DNA of 56,168 nucleotides from a virus (lineage: Duplodnaviria > Caudoviricetes). The first letter of the stretch is position 1. Every line of letters begins with the position of its first letter. Made by a program: the position numbers and the translations under genes. The DNA is taken from positions 1-56,168 of the IMG/VR virus record IMGVR_UViG_3300032295_002548. The stretch is one strand, 5' to 3'. Below, one piece after another: positions 1,796 through 26,586 of the stretch. The notes under the pieces were generated by a model, which worked only from the letters and a program-made list of their open reading frames with translations, ran no database searches and was not told the DNA's origin.

Positions 1796-4453
1796 TTAAA
1801 CTTGGACTAGGTTGGCGCGTTGGCCGGGTCGAGTCTCAAAGCCGAGTGACATGATGGAGATGAACCCCTGCGTGTTGGTCACCTTCATCCAGCTCAAACG
1901 ACCCTGCCGGCGGGTGATCAGCGGCAGTCGAAACTCTTGCGCCATCTCCGGCTCGAACCCGGTACCGCACTGCACCGACGCCGGACCAGTCGAGTAGTCC
2001 TTGCGGTACGGACGGTTGAAGTCGTTGTTGACGTTGGTCAGGTCGTACGGCGTGTCGTTGAACTTCCAGCTCTCGGAGCGGCTGTACGTCTGATCGGTGA
2101 TCACTGCCGACTCCTCGCTGGCGCCCTCGGTGTACGACGACGCCGAGAACTTCGCCCGATTGGTGGCGAGGTCGAGGTACAGCCGACGCTGGAAGTGGTT
2201 CAGGCCAGACGTGTCGTAAGCCCGGGTGATCATCTGCACCGAGATGTCGGACACGATCGTACCACTGATATCGTTCTGCCCTTCGTCGGTGACGAAGATG
2301 CGCCCGTCCTCAGTGATGGCGTGCAGCCGCTGCAGGCCCAGATAGTCGATCACCTGCCAGCTCTGGATCGCCATCGATAGCTCCGAAGCAAAGTTCCATT
2401 CGCCGAACCACTGGTCAGTGATGAAGTTGTAGACGATGACCGAGTTGCAGACCTCGCTGTTGTCCAGCGGCAGGGAGATGTAGAGCTTGTTGCTCCAGTA
2501 CCCCATGCTGATCTTGTAGCCGTAGGCCCAGTTGACCCGGCTCATGATCTTCCGCACCCGGGCCGACAACGGCAGCGTCTTGTGCTGCATCGAGTTGTTG
2601 GTGCTGGTGAGGGTCAGCAGGTTGACGTTGCCGTAGCTGACGTAGGCCAGATCCGGACCCACCGAGACGACGGCGTTGATGCCGACCAGACCGACCTGCC
2701 GCGTGATCTCGGTGGTGGTCACGTCGGACAGGCTGCCCTCGACGTTCTGCAGCAGGATGATCGACTTGTTCTTGAAGGCGATCAGGCTGTTCTGGCCGAA
2801 CGGGAAGGTCTCAAGGATGTAGTCGCTGTTACCGGTGCTAGTGCTGATCTCGTTGGCCAACGGGTCGTAGTCGGTGAATGCCAGCACGTCGGACGCGGCG
2901 ATGTTGTCCTTGCCGTTAATGACCCACAGTCGGTTCTGGTAGTACGTCGCCTGATTGCTGCGCGGGATGCTATTGAACGTGGCCGGCAACGTCGTGTTGG
3001 GGACCGGGATAAACGTGCTATTCCAGTCGCCACTCCAGTACAGCGGGGTGCTCGTATTGCCCCGGAAGATGTACACTTGGTTGTTGGCTTGGACGATGGT
3101 CGATTGCTGCAGCACCGTCTCGCCACCCAAACTAATGCTACGACTAGTTTTTCCGTTGGCGTAGAAGCCTACCGACTCGCCACCCAGTACCATGATCCAT
3201 ACGTCGGACGGGTTGGTTGGATCCGAGAAGAGCCCCGTGGCCCAGACCGAGTTGGTCGTGGCCGCCGTCATCACCTGATTGGGCGAACCGTTGGTCGAGA
3301 CCGCCACATACTGGCCCAGCCCATAGGCCACCGACGACCAAGCGTTGCCGCTGGCAGCAGCGTGGTTGGTCCAAGTGACCCCGTCGGTCGAAAGCATGGC
3401 CGAGTTGGCCGCCACGCCCGAGTTGCCGACCGCCGAGAACGACGCACCACCGAACGTGACTGACGTCCAGTCGTCGTAAGCGGTAGTACGCGCCGTCCAG
3501 ACGATGCCGTCGGTCGAACTCATCACGCCAAGGGTGCCACTCGTGCTGGTCGTGGCCACAGCGGCAAACACGCCATTGCCGTACGCGACGCTCACGCATC
3601 CAGCCGGATCCGCCGGCGTGGTCGTGGCCACCCATGTCACTCCGTCCGTGGAGTACATCGCCCGGTTCAGGGAGCCCGATCCGCCCGAGGCGACCGCGAC
3701 ATACTTGTTCCCACCGTACGCGACTCCTCGCCAGTTATGGTTGGACTGCGAGGCAGGCGTGTTCCGCAGCGTCCACGTGAACCCATCCGGCGAGGTCATC
3801 ACCTGCGTGGTGCCTCCGTTGCCGTTGGCTACGGCGACAAAGAGCCCACCGCCGTAGGTGATGGCAGACCAGTTGTAGAGCCCGGGCGCCACCTGCTGCG
3901 TCCAAGTCAGCCCGTCGTACGAAGTCATCACCCGGCAAGCGGTGTCGAAGCCGATATCGTCGGAGGTCGAGGTGATGACCGTGTCGCCAAAGCTGGTGTC
4001 GAAGAGGTAGTAGGTCGTGCCCGAAGCAAGCGCCACGTACAGACCGTTCGCGTACGTGACCGCGGACCAGTTCAGCGCCAGTCCGGTGCTAGCGGCAATC
4101 CACGTCACGCCGTCCACCGAAGTCATCAGGTCATTGACCCCAGTGCCGTCAGACTGGACCGCCACGGTGCGGTTGGCCCCCACGGCTACGGAGACCCACG
4201 CCTTGTTCTGCGGAGTGGTCTGCGCAACCCACGAGGCGCCGAGGCCGAACGGGGTCGAACCCAGTTCCGGCAGGCAGACAAATCCGCCGCGGGTCTGGGC
4301 GTCCTGCGAGGAGAAGTCCAGATTGATTGCCTGCTGCACGTTGCCCGGACGGATGTTCTCGGACGCGTTGTACTCGTCCACGCCGGTGAACGAGCCGTCC
4401 GACACCGTCACCGGTTGGTCATCAACCTCGCCATATGTACGGTACCGGTTCAT
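1796..4453 (-). CDS. Tail nozzle / head-stabilisation protein (tail tubular B-like) with an inserted beta-propeller repeat region
   Basis: 885 aa. N-term DGSFTGVD..NLD..TRGG and C-term YYQNRLWV, VIVYNFITDQW are typical of podovirus nozzle proteins; aa ~70-400 are W..V.YG.G..VAV repeats. Confidence 0.7.
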   Translation of the reverse strand: MNRYRTYGEVDDQPVTVSDGSFTGVDEYNASENIRPGNVQQAINLDFSSQDAQTRGGFVCLPELGSTPFGLGASWVAQTTPQNKAWVSVAVGANRTVAVQSDGTGVNDLMTSVDGVTWIAASTGLALNWSAVTYANGLYVALASGTTYYLFDTSFGDTVITSTSDDIGFDTACRVMTSYDGLTWTQQVAPGLYNWSAITYGGGLFVAVANGNGGTTQVMTSPDGFTWTLRNTPASQSNHNWRGVAYGGNKYVAVASGGSGSLNRAMYSTDGVTWVATTTPADPAGCVSVAYGNGVFAAVATTSTSGTLGVMSSTDGIVWTARTTAYDDWTSVTFGGASFSAVGNSGVAANSAMLSTDGVTWTNHAAASGNAWSSVAYGLGQYVAVSTNGSPNQVMTAATTNSVWATGLFSDPTNPSDVWIMVLGGESVGFYANGKTSRSISLGGETVLQQSTIVQANNQVYIFRGNTSTPLYWSGDWNSTFIPVPNTTLPATFNSIPRSNQATYYQNRLWVINGKDNIAASDVLAFTDYDPLANEISTSTGNSDYILETFPFGQNSLIAFKNKSIILLQNVEGSLSDVTTTEITRQVGLVGINAVVSVGPDLAYVSYGNVNLLTLTSTNNSMQHKTLPLSARVRKIMSRVNWAYGYKISMGYWSNKLYISLPLDNSEVCNSVIVYNFITDQWFGEWNFASELSMAIQSWQVIDYLGLQRLHAITEDGRIFVTDEGQNDISGTIVSDISVQMITRAYDTSGLNHFQRRLYLDLATNRAKFSASSYTEGASEESAVITDQTYSRSESWKFNDTPYDLTNVNNDFNRPYRKDYSTGPASVQCGTGFEPEMAQEFRLPLITRRQGRLSWMKVTNTQGFISIMSLGFETRPGQRANLVQV

Positions 4454-17829: not shown

Positions 17830-18120
17830 ATGAACAAGGGCGTACGTGACTACATCCTGAAGAACGCGGGCGTGGAGGGCTACAACCGCCCGAAGCGCAC
17901 GCCGGGGCACCCGAAAAAGTCCCACATCGTCGTGGCCAAGGAAGGCTCGCAGGTGAAGACCCTCCGCTTCGGCCAGCAGGGCGTGTCCGGGTCGCCCAAA
18001 AAGTCGGGCGAAAGCGCCTCCTACGCCGCCCGGCGCAAGTCGTTCAAGGCGCGTCACGCGAAGAACATCGCCAAGGGCAAGATGTCGGCCGCCTACTGGG
18101 CCGACAAGGTAAAATGGTGA
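17830..18120 (+). CDS. Basic protein of unknown function (96 aa), nucleic-acid-binding candidate
   Basis: VK..RFGQ.G...RRKSFKARH...SAAYWA..V.W motif, widespread in aquatic viruses. Confidence 0.75.
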   Translation: MNKGVRDYILKNAGVEGYNRPKRTPGHPKKSHIVVAKEGSQVKTLRFGQQGVSGSPKKSGESASYAARRKSFKARHAKNIAKGKMSAAYWADKVKW

Positions 18121-20135: not shown

Positions 20136-20786
20136 TCAGACCTGATTGACCGTCAGGATCACGCTGGGCGTCTCCGGGCGGGTGGGCGACGTAAGGGCGT
20201 TAACGTGCTGCAGCGATACCGCTAGGTCGCTGGAACTCCACACCAACTGGACGTAGTCGCCTGCGGCCATCTTCTCGAAGATGTTCACGTAGAAGATCAG
20301 GGCGCCCGCAGTGCCGCCGTGGCTCTGCGGCACCGAGATCTGCGAGCAGCTGGCCGGAATGTCGGTGCCGTTCTTGCGGAACCAGAACCACGCGTCGTGG
20401 ATCTGCACGTTGGTCGAGGTGACCTGCACCGACACCGCGATGTTGTACACCCCGGCGTGGGCGACGGTGACGCGGTTGCCCGAGACCACGCTCACCCCAT
20501 TGTTATCGGCGTTGGCGTTGCCGAGGTTGACGACGTAGGCGGTCGTCGTGCTGGCAATCGTCTGGTCGGTCATGTCCCAGAACGCACCCCAGTAGCCGAT
20601 CGACCCGTTGTCCCCGGTAGTGGACACGGTCAGCGTGGACACGTCCTTCGTCTCCAGCTGGGTGAACTTGATCCCCTGACCGGCGACCAGATCCAGCTGG
20701 CTCTGGGTCTTCCAAAGCGACCCGTTCAGGAACAGCTTCAGGCTATCGGCGATCCGCGTCAGCGTCTGGGTGCGCAAGAAGTTCAT
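20136..20786 (-). CDS. Orphan structural-like protein with a C1q/TNF-like beta-sandwich (216 aa)
   Basis: YWGAFWDMTDQT...AGVYNIAVSVQ...WFRKNGTDI...AGDYVQLVW; a lone minus-strand gene in a plus-strand block. Confidence 0.7.
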   Translation of the reverse strand: MNFLRTQTLTRIADSLKLFLNGSLWKTQSQLDLVAGQGIKFTQLETKDVSTLTVSTTGDNGSIGYWGAFWDMTDQTIASTTTAYVVNLGNANADNNGVSVVSGNRVTVAHAGVYNIAVSVQVTSTNVQIHDAWFWFRKNGTDIPASCSQISVPQSHGGTAGALIFYVNIFEKMAAGDYVQLVWSSSDLAVSLQHVNALTSPTRPETPSVILTVNQV

Positions 20787-20870
20787 CGCCGGGGCAGTCT
20801 GGGGGTGGGCTTGACACGTGGTCAACAGGTTATTGGAATCCCCGACGTGCCAACGGGTTTTGGAGCCAAC

Positions 20871-21362
20871 ATGAAGGGCGGACGCCCCAAGGGGAGTTAC
20901 AACAAACCGCGCCCTATCGACGTCGAGGCGGCGATCGAGGCGGCAGCCGACAACGCCCTGACCGGCAAGCCGATCGTGCCCGGCATGCTCAAGGGGCGGA
21001 AGAGATCCATACCATCCAAGGCCGACTGCGAACGGCTGACCCGCTCGCTGGGGGTCTCCATGGAAGAGTTCAACCAGCGGTTGGGCGAGAAGCTGGCCCT
21101 GATCTCCGACAAGATCGCCACCCGGATCGAGGAGAAGCTGGACAACGACGAGTTCAAGGCAGGTGAACTTGGGTTCATCTTCTCGGTGTCCGAGGACAAA
21201 CGCCGCGCACTGGACGTCCGAGCCCAGATGGGGGCGTCGCAGGTCAACATTCAGGTCAACAACTACGGCGACAAGAGCCGGGACGAGATCATTGCCGCCC
21301 TCACCCCTGAGTCCATGCGCCCGGCGGAGAAGGCGGAGATCGACCCGAACGACGTCATATGA
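20871..21362 (+). CDS. Terminase small subunit candidate (163 aa; start corrected)
   Basis: GRPKGSYNK N-terminus, helical core and VNIQVNN C-terminal strand, all typical of TerS. Confidence 0.55.
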   Translation: MKGGRPKGSYNKPRPIDVEAAIEAAADNALTGKPIVPGMLKGRKRSIPSKADCERLTRSLGVSMEEFNQRLGEKLALISDKIATRIEEKLDNDEFKAGELGFIFSVSEDKRRALDVRAQMGASQVNIQVNNYGDKSRDEIIAALTPESMRPAEKAEIDPNDVI

Positions 21363-21823
21363 GCAAGAAAGCCCAGAACAAGCTGATCATCTCCAGAAAA
21401 CATCTTCTCCGGAAGATGCTAGTCAATGGCGAGATCGAGGAAGCGGGGATGCGGGCAGCCGAATGGGGAATCGAGCTTTCAGACGTGCGAATTAACGCTT
21501 TTCACAATGCTCCGGCCGAAGTCATCGACCCGGATAGCCTGAAAACCATGCAGGAAGAGCTGATGCCCGCTACTCCACCCCCGCCTGCCGCATTACCATC
21601 TCCAGAGGTGGTAGTAGAGCTGAAGGAAAAGTGGCCGCCGCTGGTAGATCTGGTGATTACCGCCCACCCCATCAATGCCCGGTTGGTGACTGCCAAGCTG
21701 CCAGATCAAAGAAAGGCGTTAATGTGGCGTAGAGGCGGGCGTTTCCCCGTTGGCTGCATGGTTCGCGCCCGTTTATGCGATCAAGTAGGCCCGGAAGCCT
21801 ACTACGAGCCGGCCTACGAGTAA
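21359..21823 (+). CDS. Hypothetical protein (154 aa)
   Basis: ATGA overlap; Pro linker followed by a small beta-rich domain. Confidence 0.6.
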   Translation: MSKKAQNKLIISRKHLLRKMLVNGEIEEAGMRAAEWGIELSDVRINAFHNAPAEVIDPDSLKTMQEELMPATPPPPAALPSPEVVVELKEKWPPLVDLVITAHPINARLVTAKLPDQRKALMWRRGGRFPVGCMVRARLCDQVGPEAYYEPAYE

Positions 21824-22139: not shown

Positions 22140-22253
22140 CTGCCACACTGCCACACTGCCGGGCTCCTTCAACCTCTTATCCTCCGGCCCTTCGCCTTCA
22201 TCGTCTCTTCCCCTACCTCTTGAAACCAGTGTGGTAGTGTGGCAGTGTGGCAG
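22140..22253. repeat. Inverted 8-bp iteron arrays; candidate replication origin
   Basis: CTG(CCACACTG)x2CC at 22140-22160 faces CAGTGTGG-TAGTGTGG-CAGTGTGG-CAG at 22227-22253 across a pyrimidine-rich spacer. Confidence 0.6.
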
Positions 22254-22299: not shown

Positions 22300-22328
22300 T
22301 TGACCGGAGAACCTGTTTCGGCGATGAT
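22300..22328 (+). promoter_or_regulatory. Sigma70-like early promoter candidate
   Basis: TTGACC-17 nt-GATGAT; a further TTGACA at 22341. Confidence 0.5.
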
Positions 22329-22375: not shown

Positions 22376-22797
22376 GCGATGCCGGCGAAACGCCTGCCGC
22401 CCGACCCGGTGCCAGCTTGCGGTGGACCCCCGACCAGCCGGTGCCTTGAGGGCGACCGGCACGGATCGGCCGCCGGCGGCGCAGGGATGCGCCCCGGGCA
22501 AGACGGCCGGACGACCGGAGTGAGTAGCTCCGGAAATCACGTAGGGGGAGGACGGCGACGCGGTGCCAGCCTGCAGGGGGGTGCCGCTTCCGTTCCCGAT
22601 AAGGGGTGCCAGCCGCGAGAGCGACCGCGCCCCGTCCTGTGGTTCCTGCGATGCCGACGACACGTCTGCCGCAGGGAGGCCGAGAGAGGCGATGCCGACG
22701 ACACGTCTGCCGCCTGAGCGCCGACCATACCCGCGATGCCGACGACACGTCTGCCGTGGAGCCGACCGCCCTGCGATGCCGACGAAACGTCTGCCGC
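22376..22797 (+). repeat. 25-bp hairpin direct repeat: four clustered copies plus one isolated copy
   Basis: GCGATGCCGACGACACGTCTGCCGC consensus at 22648, 22689, 22733 and 22773; variant at 22376. Confidence 0.92.
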
Positions 22798-23006
22798 AAT
22801 GCGGAGAGGGGACGGGGGGCAGGGTAGCGGATTGGCCCCACGGTCCCCCTCGGAAGCGGGGAGCGGATGGAAGCGGGGAGTGCCCCGCGAGGGTGCAGGG
22901 TCGCCAGACGACGCTGCACCCGCCGCCTTGACCGTTGCGCCCTCGGCACCGAGGGACGCAGAACGACGCACCTTCCCCTGCCGGGCGTGAATGCCACACG
23001 CCCGGA

Positions 23007-23090
23007 GGAGTCAATGCAGCCATCGCCGCACCCTGCGGCGATGCCGGTTCCAAGCCCGGGCCGCCCTGTCGGGCGATGCAGAGGAACTCC
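23007..23090 (+). ncRNA. Twister self-cleaving ribozyme, type P1 with P3 and P5 stems
   Basis: P1 GGAGU/ACUCC; C^AA; P2 UGCA/UGCA; GC; P3 CAUCGCCGCA/UGCGGCGAUG; P4 CCGG-UUCCAAGC-CCGG; P5 CGCCC/GGGCG; GAGGA. Both pseudoknots (GC/GC, UCC/GGA) can form. Confidence 0.88.
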
Positions 23091-23112
23091 AACCCGCCAA
23101 CACGTCCCCACG

Positions 23113-23340
23113 ATGAACGCCACCCTGTCCCGCTCCGCCTCGTACCGCCTCGCCGTCTCCGCCAAGGCCGACCTCTGGCTCCCCGCCAACGGCGGCACCG
23201 AGGAGCCCTTCACGACCCGCAACGGGGTCCGCCTGCTCTACTGCTTCAACCCGCGCCTCGGCCGGCACGCTTACCTCGACCTCTCCTGCGACCACATCCT
23301 CGACGACGACGACGCCTTCCGCGCCCTCGGCCTGATCTAA
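23113..23340 (+). CDS. First early protein, hypothetical (75 aa; start corrected)
   Basis: MNATLSRS...W.PANGGTEEPF..R.G.RLLYCFNP..GRHAYLDL..D.IL; preceded by the leader motif. Confidence 0.75.
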   Translation: MNATLSRSASYRLAVSAKADLWLPANGGTEEPFTTRNGVRLLYCFNPRLGRHAYLDLSCDHILDDDDAFRALGLI

Positions 23341-23391
23341 CCCACCAACCCGTTTTCCCGTTAGTATCCAAACCAACAACACGTCATCCAC

Positions 23392-24438
23392 ATGTCCTCG
23401 TCCACTGCCTCGTACCTCGCCTCCCTCATCGCGGCCAAGCGCCGCGTCCTGTTCGTCGGCCCGCCGGGCTGCGCCAAGACCGCCCGCATCGCGGCGGCTG
23501 CCGCCGCCGCCGGTCACGACCTCGTCGTGATTCGCCTCTCGCTCGCCGAGCGGGTGGACCTCGGCGGCTGCTTGGTCCCCGACGCCGCCGGCGGCGTGAC
23601 CCGCGCCCTGCCGCTGGAGACCCTGCACCGCCTGCGCACCACCACCCGGCCGACCATCCTGCTGCTGGACGACCTCGGCCAAGCGCCCATCGACGTGCAG
23701 GCCAGCGCGATGGCGCTCTTCGACAGCGGCGCGCTGCCGGCTCACGTCCTGATCTGGGGCGCGACCAATCGGCCGGGCGACAAGTCCGGCGTGACCGGCC
23801 TGTGCGAACCGCTCCGGTCCCGGTATCACGTCGCCTTCAGCGTCGCCACGCCGGAGTCCGAGGAGAAGTCCGACGGCTCCACCTTCATCGCGCCGTGGGC
23901 CGACGAGGTCGCCGCGTGGTGCGACTGGGCCAGCGGCGAGGACTTCGCGCCGGAGATCATCGCGTGGCACCGCAGCACGACGGGCCGCACGCTGTACGCT
24001 TGGAAGCCGGTCAGCGACCCCGCGCTGCGGCTGCCCGACTTCCGCTCGTGGGAGACGGTCGGCCGCTTGTGGTCGGCCGGCCTGCGTGACCTGCGCACCG
24101 TCGGCGCGGCGATTGGCAAGCCTGCCGCCGCTGAGTTCCTCGCGTTCGCTGCGCTGGCCGATCAGCTGCCCACGCCGCAACAGGTGTGGCTCGATCCCGA
24201 CGGCGCGACGGTGCCGACCGATCCCGCTGCGCAGTACTTGATCGCGGCGATGCTCGGCCGCGCTGCGGAGCCGAAGTTCGCGACGCAGCTCGTCACCTAC
24301 TTCTCGCGGCTGCCGCGAGTGATGGGCGCTTACTGCGCCCGGGACGCTTACAAGCGGCTCGGCGCGAAGCTCGCCGGCAACGGCGCGTGGCAGCAGTGGT
24401 TCCTCGCGAACCGCCAGCTGTTCGAGACCGGCACCTAA
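23392..24438 (+). CDS. AAA+ ATPase (MoxR/dynein-related type)
   Basis: Walker A GPPGCAKT, Walker B LLLDD, sensor GATNRPGD, Arg finger PLRSR, RSWE motif. Confidence 0.88.
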   Translation: MSSSTASYLASLIAAKRRVLFVGPPGCAKTARIAAAAAAAGHDLVVIRLSLAERVDLGGCLVPDAAGGVTRALPLETLHRLRTTTRPTILLLDDLGQAPIDVQASAMALFDSGALPAHVLIWGATNRPGDKSGVTGLCEPLRSRYHVAFSVATPESEEKSDGSTFIAPWADEVAAWCDWASGEDFAPEIIAWHRSTTGRTLYAWKPVSDPALRLPDFRSWETVGRLWSAGLRDLRTVGAAIGKPAAAEFLAFAALADQLPTPQQVWLDPDGATVPTDPAAQYLIAAMLGRAAEPKFATQLVTYFSRLPRVMGAYCARDAYKRLGAKLAGNGAWQQWFLANRQLFETGT

Positions 24439-24440
24439 CA

Positions 24441-24492
24441 GGCCGAAACGCCCGCAAGGGCTTCGCACCGTCACGCGGTGCCTGATGAGGCC
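24441..24492 (+). ncRNA. Hammerhead ribozyme, type II
   Basis: GGCC-GAAA-C-GCCC(GCAA)GGGC-UUC^-GCACCG(UCACG)CGGUGC-CUGAUGA-GGCC; complete catalytic core with one C.U mismatch at the base of stem III. Confidence 0.85.
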
Positions 24493-24530
24493 AGATTGCC
24501 CCGTATCCAAACCAACAACACGTCCAACAG

Positions 24531-25343
24531 ATGAAGACCAAGACCACCACCACCGCTCCGTCCCTGATCGCCCGCAAGGCGGTCATCGCCTCGTTCACGT
24601 CGTCGCAGTGGCGCACCGTGCGCCGCCACGCCGCCGAGACCAAGGCCGAGAATGCCCGGCACGGCCTCACCGACGAGGCCCGCGTCGATGTCAAAGTGTG
24701 CAACGACCCCGCGCTCGAAGAGGCGGCGCGGATCATCACCGCAGCCCGCGCCGATCATTACCGGCTCACCGTGCCGGCCGCCGACCGCGGGATGAGGCTG
24801 CTCCCCGGCGCTCGCCAGCTGGAGCACGCCGACACCCTGCAGGCGCACGGCGTGAAGTTCCAAGCCGCTGTCGCGCAGTTCCTCGCTCGGTACGAGACGC
24901 TCCGCGCCGACGCTCCGGCCCGGCTCAACGGCCTGTACATCGCGAGCCACTGGCCCGACCTCGACCGCGTGCGCGGTTCGTTCGCGCTCTCGTGCCGCTA
25001 CCTCCCGGTGCCGGCGCTCGGTCAATGGGACGAGTGGATCGCCGAGTCGGCGAGCAACGCGACCGAGGAGATTCGCACGCGGATCGGCGAGGCGCTGCGC
25101 GCCGCTGCCGAAAAGCTGGCCGATCCCAAGGCGATCTTCCGCGACTCCCTCGTGGGCAACCTCGTCGATATCCTCAACCTCGCCGACGATCTCAACATCG
25201 CCGGCGACCCGGCGGTCGCCGACCTCGTCGCGCAAGCCAAGGCGCTCGCCAACGTCGAGCCCGACCAGCTGCGCGAGGACAAGACGCTGCGCGCCAACAC
25301 CGCCGCCCGGGCGGCCGACCTGTGCTCCCTGTTCAGCCTGTAA
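24531..25343 (+). CDS. DUF3150-like helical protein of the AAA+/vWA module
   Basis: 270 aa; HY.LTVP..DRG.RLLP, F..RY, A..RLNGLY....WP, IFRDSLV.N motifs; lies between the ATPase and vWA genes. Confidence 0.65.
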   Translation: MKTKTTTTAPSLIARKAVIASFTSSQWRTVRRHAAETKAENARHGLTDEARVDVKVCNDPALEEAARIITAARADHYRLTVPAADRGMRLLPGARQLEHADTLQAHGVKFQAAVAQFLARYETLRADAPARLNGLYIASHWPDLDRVRGSFALSCRYLPVPALGQWDEWIAESASNATEEIRTRIGEALRAAAEKLADPKAIFRDSLVGNLVDILNLADDLNIAGDPAVADLVAQAKALANVEPDQLREDKTLRANTAARAADLCSLFSL

Positions 25344-25368
25344 TCCAAACCATCAACACGTTTCCCGT

Positions 25369-26586
25369 ATGAACCCGATCAACAAAGCAACCCTGCTCCG
25401 CATCGACCGCGCCCGCTGGTGGGCGCTGTCCTCTCCCGCCGCCGTGTTTTACGGCAGCCTCGCCACCCACCTCGTCGATGTCATCGACGAGTCCATCCCG
25501 ACCGCCGCGACCGACGGCAAGCGCATCCTCTGGAACCCGACGTTCGTCGCCGGGCTCACCGACGAGGAGGTGCGGTTCGTCCTGCTCCACGAGACGTTGC
25601 ACTGCGCACACGCCCACTTCGACCGGCTCCCGCTCAATGAGCAGGGCAACAAGGCGGGCGACTACGCCATCAACCGCGTGCTGCAGGGCATCGCCGGCAT
25701 CGCGATGCCCAAGGACGGCCTGCTCGACCCGCGCTTCGACAACCTCGCCGAGGAGGAAATCCTCGCCGCCCTCGGTCGCGAGGCGCAGCCGCAGCCCGGC
25801 AACGGCAAGCCCTCGCCCGGTGCGGGTGGTGGCAAGCCGCAGCCCCAGCCCGGCAAGGGCCAGCCTGACGACGGACAAACTGGTTCGCCCGATCCCGGCG
25901 GCTGCGGTGGCTTCGTCGCCCCCGATAAGACGCCCAACCCGCAGGGCAAGACGCTCGCCGAGAAGTGGGAGCAGGCCGTGATCCAAGCCGAGTTCACGGC
26001 GAAGACCCTCGGCAAGGGCAACGCGCCGGCCGACCTCAAGCGCATCCTCGACCGCATCCGCGCCACCGACGTGGACTGGAAGCGCGAGGTCGCCGACTTC
26101 GCTCGGACCGCCATCAGCGCCAGCGCCGACTGGTCCCGCTCGACCCGCCGGATGGCGACCGCGCCGGTGATCTACCCGCGCCGCAAGCGCGACCGCGTGG
26201 GCTGCCTGCTCGTGGTGCGCGACACGTCGGGCAGCATCGACAACAAGCTGTGCGCCGAGTTCTCGGCGCAGGTCACGCAGGTCATCGCCGACCTGCAGTG
26301 CCGGGCCATCGTGCTCGACGTGGACACCCGGCTGCACGCCGAGTACCGCCTTGAGCCGGGCGACGAGTGCCCCAGCAACGCACGCGGCGGTGGCGGCACC
26401 GCCTTCACCCCGGCGTTCGACCGGCTGGCCGAGTTGCAGGACGAGGGCGAGGACATCGCCGGCGTGCTGTACCTGACCGACCTCGACGGTGAGTTCCCCG
26501 ACAACCCGCCCGACGTGCCCACCCTGTGGGTGGCGTACGGCACGACGCGCGCCGCCCCGTTCGGCCGCACGCTGCACGTGAAGTGA
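25369..26586 (+). CDS. DUF2201-type putative metallopeptidase plus vWA domain protein
   Basis: TAATDG, HETLH (HExxH), NKAGDYAIN, G/P/Q linker, MIDAS DTSGS, GGGGTAF, YLTDLDG. Confidence 0.88.
   Translation: MNPINKATLLRIDRARWWALSSPAAVFYGSLATHLVDVIDESIPTAATDGKRILWNPTFVAGLTDEEVRFVLLHETLHCAHAHFDRLPLNEQGNKAGDYAINRVLQGIAGIAMPKDGLLDPRFDNLAEEEILAALGREAQPQPGNGKPSPGAGGGKPQPQPGKGQPDDGQTGSPDPGGCGGFVAPDKTPNPQGKTLAEKWEQAVIQAEFTAKTLGKGNAPADLKRILDRIRATDVDWKREVADFARTAISASADWSRSTRRMATAPVIYPRRKRDRVGCLLVVRDTSGSIDNKLCAEFSAQVTQVIADLQCRAIVLDVDTRLHAEYRLEPGDECPSNARGGGGTAFTPAFDRLAELQDEGEDIAGVLYLTDLDGEFPDNPPDVPTLWVAYGTTRAAPFGRTLHVK

Follow-up and report, generated by a model that had tools for sequence, protein, structure and literature searches.

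A predicted type-P1 twister ribozyme ahead of the replication module of an environmental phage, and its putative hammerhead partner

What self-cleaving ribozymes accomplish in the vicinity of phage genes is a question that the literature acknowledges as open (PMC6765202), and the locus described here poses it in a concrete form: does the RNA that precedes a phage replication module cut its own transcript, and what would such a cut achieve? The DNA under study, hereafter called the window, is a 56,168-bp IMG/VR virus record that looks complete (CheckV 100%) and has a G+C content of 58–70%; most sequencing runs containing it carry the label of a freshwater or lake metagenome. Its replication module consists of plus-strand genes from 23113 to about 37800, namely those for a 75-aa ORF, AAA ATPase, 270-aa ORF, DUF2201 metallopeptidase/VWA protein, primase, DUF2800 exonuclease, Enc34-type ssDNA-binding protein, family A DNA polymerase, and SNF2 helicase. 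The 75-aa ORF (23113–23340, plus strand, ATG at 23113) matched no Pfam or PHROG entry. The AAA ATPase gene (23392–24438, plus strand; phrog_1297 at 1.4e-37; PF00004) was used as the anchor for fetching relatives from IMG/VR, metagenomes and MAGs. No cultured relative was matched when positions 22700–23700 (blastn) and the ATPase (tblastn) were compared with 50,697 phage records. The contig of one relative (L086) is binned in a Phycisphaerales MAG.

The segment between 21824 and 23112 comprises some 1.2–1.3 kb without a convincing gene, and at its 3′ end lies a predicted type-P1 twister ribozyme with the optional stems P3 and P5 (23007–23090, plus strand). The first-pass annotation had described all of its elements, P1 to P5, loop L4 and both pseudoknots; the sequence, the Rfam alignment and the minimum free energy (MFE) fold place them at the same positions, and the predicted ribozyme ends 22 nt before the first ATG, as that annotation held. 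P1 (23007–23011 with 23086–23090; 5 bp) is found in both the Rfam alignment and the MFE fold. It is followed by C(−1), A1 and A2 of loop L1 (23012–23014), which align to U-A-A of the Rfam consensus. P2 (23015–23018 with 23077–23080) and P4 (23044–23047 with 23056–23059) have 4 bp each, P3 is formed by 23021–23030 with 23034–23043, and P5 is an optional stem-loop with a 5-bp stem (23062–23066 with 23071–23075) and the loop UGUC. Loop L4 (23048–23055), which reads UUCCAAGC, is engaged in both pseudoknots: T1 joins 23049–23051 to the 3′ strand of L1 at 23083–23085 (3 bp), T2 joins 23054–23055 to the GC of L2 at 23019–23020 (2 bp), and both are fully complementary in the window.

The AA after the cut, the GAGG motif, U..AAGC, and the GC of L2 all fall on upper-case consensus positions of RF03160, from which the window departs only at U23049 and A23085. 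The 3′ strand of L1 (23081–23085) thus reads GAGGA where the consensus has GAGGG; the two deviating bases are paired with each other and therefore represent one compensated pair, T1 being a covarying helix among the relatives. G23081 is aligned to the first G of the conserved GAGGG in L1, and we take it to be the candidate active-site guanine. Alignment to the family model puts the scissile bond between C23012 and A23013, bearing out the earlier prediction, and we consider this cut site highly likely. For the 84 nt alone, MFE folding recovers P1–P5 at −42.1 kcal/mol (z −2.8; two of 200 shuffles were equally stable). In the MFE fold of 319 nt, calculated without pseudoknots and with an ensemble frequency of 0.002, P3–P5 are retained and P1 and P2 are lost.

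A covariance-model search, which the first-pass annotation had named as a check, matched RF03160 over its full length (model positions 1–68) at 23008–23089 with 41.9 bits, corresponding to E values of 5.1e-8 on 401 nt, 7.1e-6 on the whole window, and 1.7e-9 per genome. This score is 25 bits short of the RF03160 gathering score of 67.2, and an Rfam scan of the whole window at the gathering threshold returned no match. The shortfall is due mainly to the 13-nt P5 insertion, and also to the divergent P3. The twister of the related locus L003 reached 45.2 bits with RF03160, and the window twister reached 110.9 bits with R1, a covariance model of our own that was derived from five copies and leaves out T1 and T2. 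At E < 0.001, R1 detected 14 plus-strand copies upstream of the ATPase in 87 sources, namely in the window, L003, L006–L013, L036, and L058/59/61. The last three are relatives with 37% G+C which carry a minimal twister without P5 (147–208); the ATPases of L058/L059/L061 and of L081 are 29–30% identical, and in these loci, too, ribozymes are found near the gene. In ten related loci, a related twister is found ahead of the same AAA-ATPase gene, the twister of L036 being the same as that of L013. In L162, found by pattern, the ATPase is 44% identical and the twister is positioned about 21 nt before the ATPase start. A minus-strand R1 match at 17952–18024 (21.7 bits, E 0.011) was discarded as a candidate second twister, as it lacks L4 and P4 and resembles a plain hairpin.

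Conservation of the fold was assessed with an alignment of nine distinct sequences (A4). In A4, which was fitted to the nested helices and thus favours them and whose model does not contain the pseudoknots, 96.1% of 254 pair cells hold standard pairs, and both-side changes occur in 14 of 30 pairs, pairs of both pseudoknots included. None of 500 shuffles reached the observed pairing or covariation score, and slid partner columns paired at only 27–43%. P1 is 97.7% paired, with three of its five pairs changed on both sides; P2 and P4 are 100% paired; and P5 likewise shows both-side changes in three of five pairs. All lettered cells of T1 and T2 pair, with changes on both sides in two of three T1 pairs and one of two T2 pairs. 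The T1 triplets are UCC/GGA (window), CCC/GGG, CAC/GUG, UAC/GUA and UCA/UGA, and the T2 pairs GC/GC or AC/GU. Nine T1 triplet combinations were counted among 71 distinct twister-like sequences from the fetched loci; false matches of a loose descriptor mostly have 0–2 T1 pairs. Judged by these exchanges, the predicted twister structure is conserved by selection on pairing. The full-length RF03160 match together with covariation in the relatives upholds the type-P1 assignment, and we regard 23007–23090 as a genuine type-P1 twister with high confidence.

The AA following the cut is invariant in A4, and A23013 is kept in all orthologs. The C at position −1, to which the first-pass annotation had drawn attention, is tolerated, since orthologs show C, G, U or A; the 71 distinct twister-like sequences have U in 59 cases, C in eight, G in three, and A in one. 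The uridine at this position is termed ‘less conserved’ in PMC5408937. Only an A, or GA, separates P5 from P2 where UAAA is usual, which counts against the assignment; the short linkers listed, like all eight P5-bearing ones, nevertheless end in A. Among the fetched twisters, P5 is confined to the ATPase-linked clade, L162 included. The twister keeps a conserved place at the head of the gene module, 3–33 nt ahead of a start codon throughout, and the ORF behind it varies: close relatives carry members of a 75-aa family, of a 111/95-aa family, or others at this position, the 75-aa ORF of the window being 58% identical to the ORF behind the L003 twister.

A second ribozyme is predicted three bases past the stop codon of the ATPase gene. 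This type II hammerhead (24441–24492, plus strand; predicted cut after C24464) was recognized by means of RF02276 and homologs. Its score of 25.0 bits (E 0.0028 on 181 nt, 0.87 on the window) stays below the RF02276 cut-off of 37. The core motifs CUGANGA and GAAA and an H at position 17 are present at 24441–24492. Among seven hammerhead homologs, 99.1% of the cells are paired and seven of 16 pairs covary, all six stem I pairs being changed on both sides. The sole unpaired cell in this set is a C.U mismatch of the window at T24462, that is, in the 15.2–16.2 pair beside the cleavage triplet UUC. L006 has the same T; G takes its place in L008 and in a contig from one DNA run. Owing to this mismatch, the window hammerhead may be slow or reduced in activity. 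The ribozyme pair brackets the ORF plus ATPase unit in the window, in L006 and in L008. Immediately 3′ of the hammerhead, long plus-strand ORFs overlap in different frames (24485–25372 and 24531–25343). The 270-aa frame 24531–25343 is the real gene of this pair, because a 44% identical homolog is present in L162; the ATG at 24485, at which the competing ORF starts, falls within the hammerhead core.

Forty-eight relatives whose ATPase identity is 43% or higher were tabulated. The twister is present in ten of them, seven possess a type II hammerhead upstream of the ATPase in its stead, and 31 show neither. Two of the seven hammerhead loci (L004 and L014) are the same contig. In L004/L014, L016 and L022, 20–25 nt separate the hammerhead from the ATPase start; in L002, L044 and L047 it is 520–1036 nt away from it. 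A scan of 20 of the 31 ribozyme-less relatives with all Rfam families, at the lower sensitivity of a 69-kb input, gave no ribozyme at E ≤ 10. In the distant, AT-rich L081, two predicted type II hammerheads (7–75 and 3547–3614) bracket the ATPase block. Because 31 of the tabulated relatives show no ribozyme, the twister is evidently dispensable. Since a hammerhead replaces the twister at the same locus in relatives, cleavage itself appears to be the selected activity, and the distribution argues for selection on the cut itself, not on any one RNA.

What such a cut would yield can be outlined from the chemistry of the class. Three reviews (PMC5408937, PMC6765202, PMC8782182) state that twisters cleave 5′ of a conserved A, leaving a 2′,3′-cyclic phosphate and a 5′-OH, and that P1 is not required for the chemistry. 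PMC5408937 classes P1, P2 and P4 as essential, with P0, P3 and P5 being optional, and PMC8782182 describes the 5′ end of the 3′ fragment as buried in the fold. We propose that the plus-strand transcript folds into P1–P5 with T1 and T2 and would cut itself between C23012 and A23013. The upstream product would be an iteron-containing and structured leader RNA ending in a 2′,3′-cyclic phosphate, and the downstream product would start with a 5′-OH enclosed in the compact twister fold and reach the first start codon after 100 nt. In this way, the cut would sever a long structured leader from the replication-module mRNA, with the twister fold left as a cap. The hammerhead would cut the same transcript after C24464, so that the ATPase unit would carry the stem III hairpin at its 3′ end and the downstream RNA would begin with the stem I hairpin. 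Together, the cuts would detach a 1452-nt unit, with the 75-aa ORF and the AAA ATPase gene, from the remainder of the replication operon. The mRNA segments would be uncoupled and protected, and leader, ATPase unit and downstream genes could differ in stability or translation.

We consider it fairly probable that the best overall explanation is a splitting of the early transcript into separate units by twister self-cleavage and the hammerhead. That twister cleavage as such has a processing or stabilizing role is put forward more tentatively, falling somewhat short of probable. Stabilization of the mRNA through the 5′-OH, as suggested by the first-pass annotation, is plausible; by analogy, the effect may also run in the opposite direction, as in the glmS ribozyme, where cleavage lowers expression and a 5′-OH can destabilize mRNA (PMC6765202). 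According to PMC3088659, prophage hammerheads flank genes and may process long phage transcripts, and in the haloviruses HF1/HF2 the 5′ end mapped for the early transcript is no more than 3 nt away from a hammerhead cut site. The annotation had also let the twister head the early operon. This is correct insofar as it precedes the replication module; however, about 1.2 kb of non-coding DNA with a conserved block and iterons as well as two plus-strand ORFs (20319–21823) lie 5′ of it, and a predicted hammerhead follows the ATPase gene.

The DNA directly 5′ of the twister suggests a different emphasis. A conserved, structured non-coding block of about 180 nt occupies 22812–22975 on the plus strand (22818–22999 by nhmmer). 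An nhmmer search of 183 loci found it nowhere but directly beside twisters: in the window, L003/L140 (L003, 2296–2484), L006–L009 (L006, 749–924; L009, 353–513), L012 (516–704), L013 (795–980) and L036 (479–664). It is present in eight of ten twister loci upstream of a 77–99% identical ATPase. RNAalifold predicts a multi-hairpin domain of 43 pairs, eight of which show changes on both sides, with highly conserved loops. The block may function as a new non-coding RNA of the phage or else at the level of DNA. Between block and ribozyme, a hairpin with a 9-bp stem and the loop AAUGCCA (22981–23005, plus strand) adjoins P1; its stems are altered in L003, L012 and L013, and the loop is enlarged in L006 and L009 by an inserted stretch of about 85 nt that contains two iterons. 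In twisters, P0 sits 5′ of P1, and the hairpin may be such an optional P0.

Further upstream, five iteron-like direct repeats of 25–36 nt (repeat family D1; 22376–22808, plus strand) precede the block, at 22376–22411, 22648–22683, 22689–22724, 22733–22768 and 22773–22808. The repeats contain a small internal palindrome, four copies are spaced 40–44 nt apart, and similar iterons occur upstream of the L003 twister; the array may be an origin or a regulator-binding array. Two 21-nt inverted repeats, 95% complementary and 72 nt apart (22140–22160 and 22233–22253), are built from a tandem CTGCCACA unit and appear operator-like. A consensus promoter scan gave no promoter just upstream of the twister, the sole sigma-70-like site being at 22300–22328. 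The sequence TTGACC at 22929 was rejected as a promoter element: it forms one side of a predicted long-range helix, and neither L006 nor L012 keeps it.

These features are the basis of the alternative that the twister mainly makes the 3′ end, with its 2′,3′-cyclic phosphate, of a functional RNA of about 180–200 nt (22812–23012), any effect on the mRNA being secondary; such an RNA might serve a regulatory purpose, for instance, or work at a replication origin with iterons. The restriction of the block to the 5′ side of twisters, its very conserved loops, the both-side changes in its predicted pairs and the five iterons just 5′ of it all fit this proposal. One of the 20 listed runs with the stretch is an RNA library, and its single contig over 22743–22892 weakly points the same way; it is an assembled contig, not read-level evidence, lies off the cut site, and could be DNA. 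However, the twisters of L010, L011, L058 and L162 have no block, hammerheads substitute for the twister in relatives without such a block, and the conservation of the block could be due to a DNA-level role as origin or operator. Moreover, no Rfam family matched the block, and it was found on only one IMG/VR contig besides the window. Altogether we consider this alternative unlikely. Its extension, that block and P0-like hairpin constitute a new class of phage non-coding RNA whose 3′ end is made by a fused twister, seems rather improbable; if true, it would provide a natural ribozyme acting as 3′-end maturase for a functional RNA, possibly tied to replication control.

Cleavage could also work as a translational switch, P1 and the compact fold being 2–33 nt away from the start codon, in that release of the 5′ fragment would free the 3′ strand of P1 and open the ribosome landing site of the first ORF. 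In L003, L013 and L036 the gap between twister and ATG is just 3–4 nt (counted from the end of a 4-bp P1), and leaders rich in C and A without a Shine-Dalgarno sequence were seen at 23090–23112, at 24493–24530 and in L002 (2955–2997), which suggests a host that initiates translation without Shine-Dalgarno pairing. PMC13725137 reports that self-cleavage in the 5′ UTR of fungal and plant RNA viruses enables translation initiation. This precedent is eukaryotic and cap-related, however, and in the window the gap of 22 nt (22–33 nt elsewhere) leaves room for a ribosome without unfolding, which makes a translational switch quite improbable.

According to a third proposal, the ribozyme pair excises 23013–24464 (1452 nt) and a host RtcB-type ligase circularizes the mRNA, or the cassette is a mobile unit. 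The bracketing of ORF and ATPase in the window, L006 and L008, the two hammerheads around the ATPase block of the distant L081, the swapping of the ORF behind the twister among close relatives, and the end chemistry, which suits RtcB according to PMC8782182, would be in line with excision. In a pattern scan, the twister core pattern was present in 96 IMG/VR stretches, with the same ATPase nearby only in L140 and L162. Two same-strand copies, 0.3–3.2 kb apart, occur in 19 of 80 listed stretches, and ribozyme-bracketed cassettes seem common in phage contigs. Against circularization, no phage-encoded RtcB was found, no back-joined contigs were seen (contigs being poor evidence for such joins), and the window hammerhead has a mismatch that would weaken it; furthermore, Perreault et al. 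sought circular or spliced products of hammerhead clusters and found none (PMC3088659). Excision followed by ligation or mobility is therefore very improbable. That 23007–23090 is a chance look-alike or a decayed relic without cleavage activity, as its score under the Rfam cut-off and the lack of a twister in most relatives might imply, is scarcely credible in view of compensatory changes in every varying helix and both pseudoknots across ATPases 44–99% identical, and of invariant core nucleotides.

Compared with known systems, the element shares with the type-P1 twister family (RF03160) the helices P1, P2 and P4, the optional P3 and P5, the L4/L1 core with T1 and T2, and the conserved A 3′ of the scissile bond, and with the class as a whole the setting near phage genes and hammerheads (PMC6765202). 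It differs in having C at −1 and one T1 pair that is U-A and not C-G, and in combining P3 with P5, where A or GA is all that separates P5 from P2. Most copies are moreover fused to the conserved 5′ block of about 180 nt, and the one studied here belongs to high-GC phages from freshwater metagenomes. The splitting of the early transcript that we favour resembles what Perreault et al. 2011 (PMC3088659) describe for clustered prophage hammerheads, where ribozymes bracket single genes or short gene blocks of varying identity and cutting of long phage transcripts into gene-length mRNAs was proposed. Type II hammerheads of that architecture are present in the phages studied here, too; in contrast to these clusters, the predicted pair is mixed, with a twister 5′ and a hammerhead 3′, and the two classes interchange in related phages. 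The HF1/HF2 hammerhead, as presented in the same source, is likewise located ahead of the first ORF of an early/replication operon of a dsDNA virus; it belongs to another ribozyme class, its host is archaeal, and the 5′ end is mapped there, whereas the cut is predicted here. Like the twister, the glmS ribozyme is a cis-cleaving element of a bacterial 5′ leader whose 5′-OH product sets the fate of the mRNA (PMC6765202), but glmS requires a metabolite cofactor and its cleavage lowers expression, while neither a ligand pocket nor regulation is evident in the phage element.

Twisters near phage genes and neighbouring hammerheads are already in print (PMC6765202). The present locus adds a P3- and P5-containing subgroup below the Rfam cut-off, and informative in its setting are the mixed ribozyme pair, the replacement of one class by the other, and the fused RNA block. 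The supplements of Roth 2014, Weinberg 2015 and Felletti 2017 reportedly list ribozyme-associated gene classes and may already include the ATPase/VWA neighbourhood.

The Rfam gathering cut-off misses a whole covarying subgroup of predicted twisters in environmental phages. Members of the clade carry either a twister or a type II hammerhead at the head of one orthologous gene module, both ribozymes around the ATPase unit, or none, and thereby offer a natural comparison of four states. In the phage studied here, RNA elements of the early transcript itself probably divide it into separate pieces.
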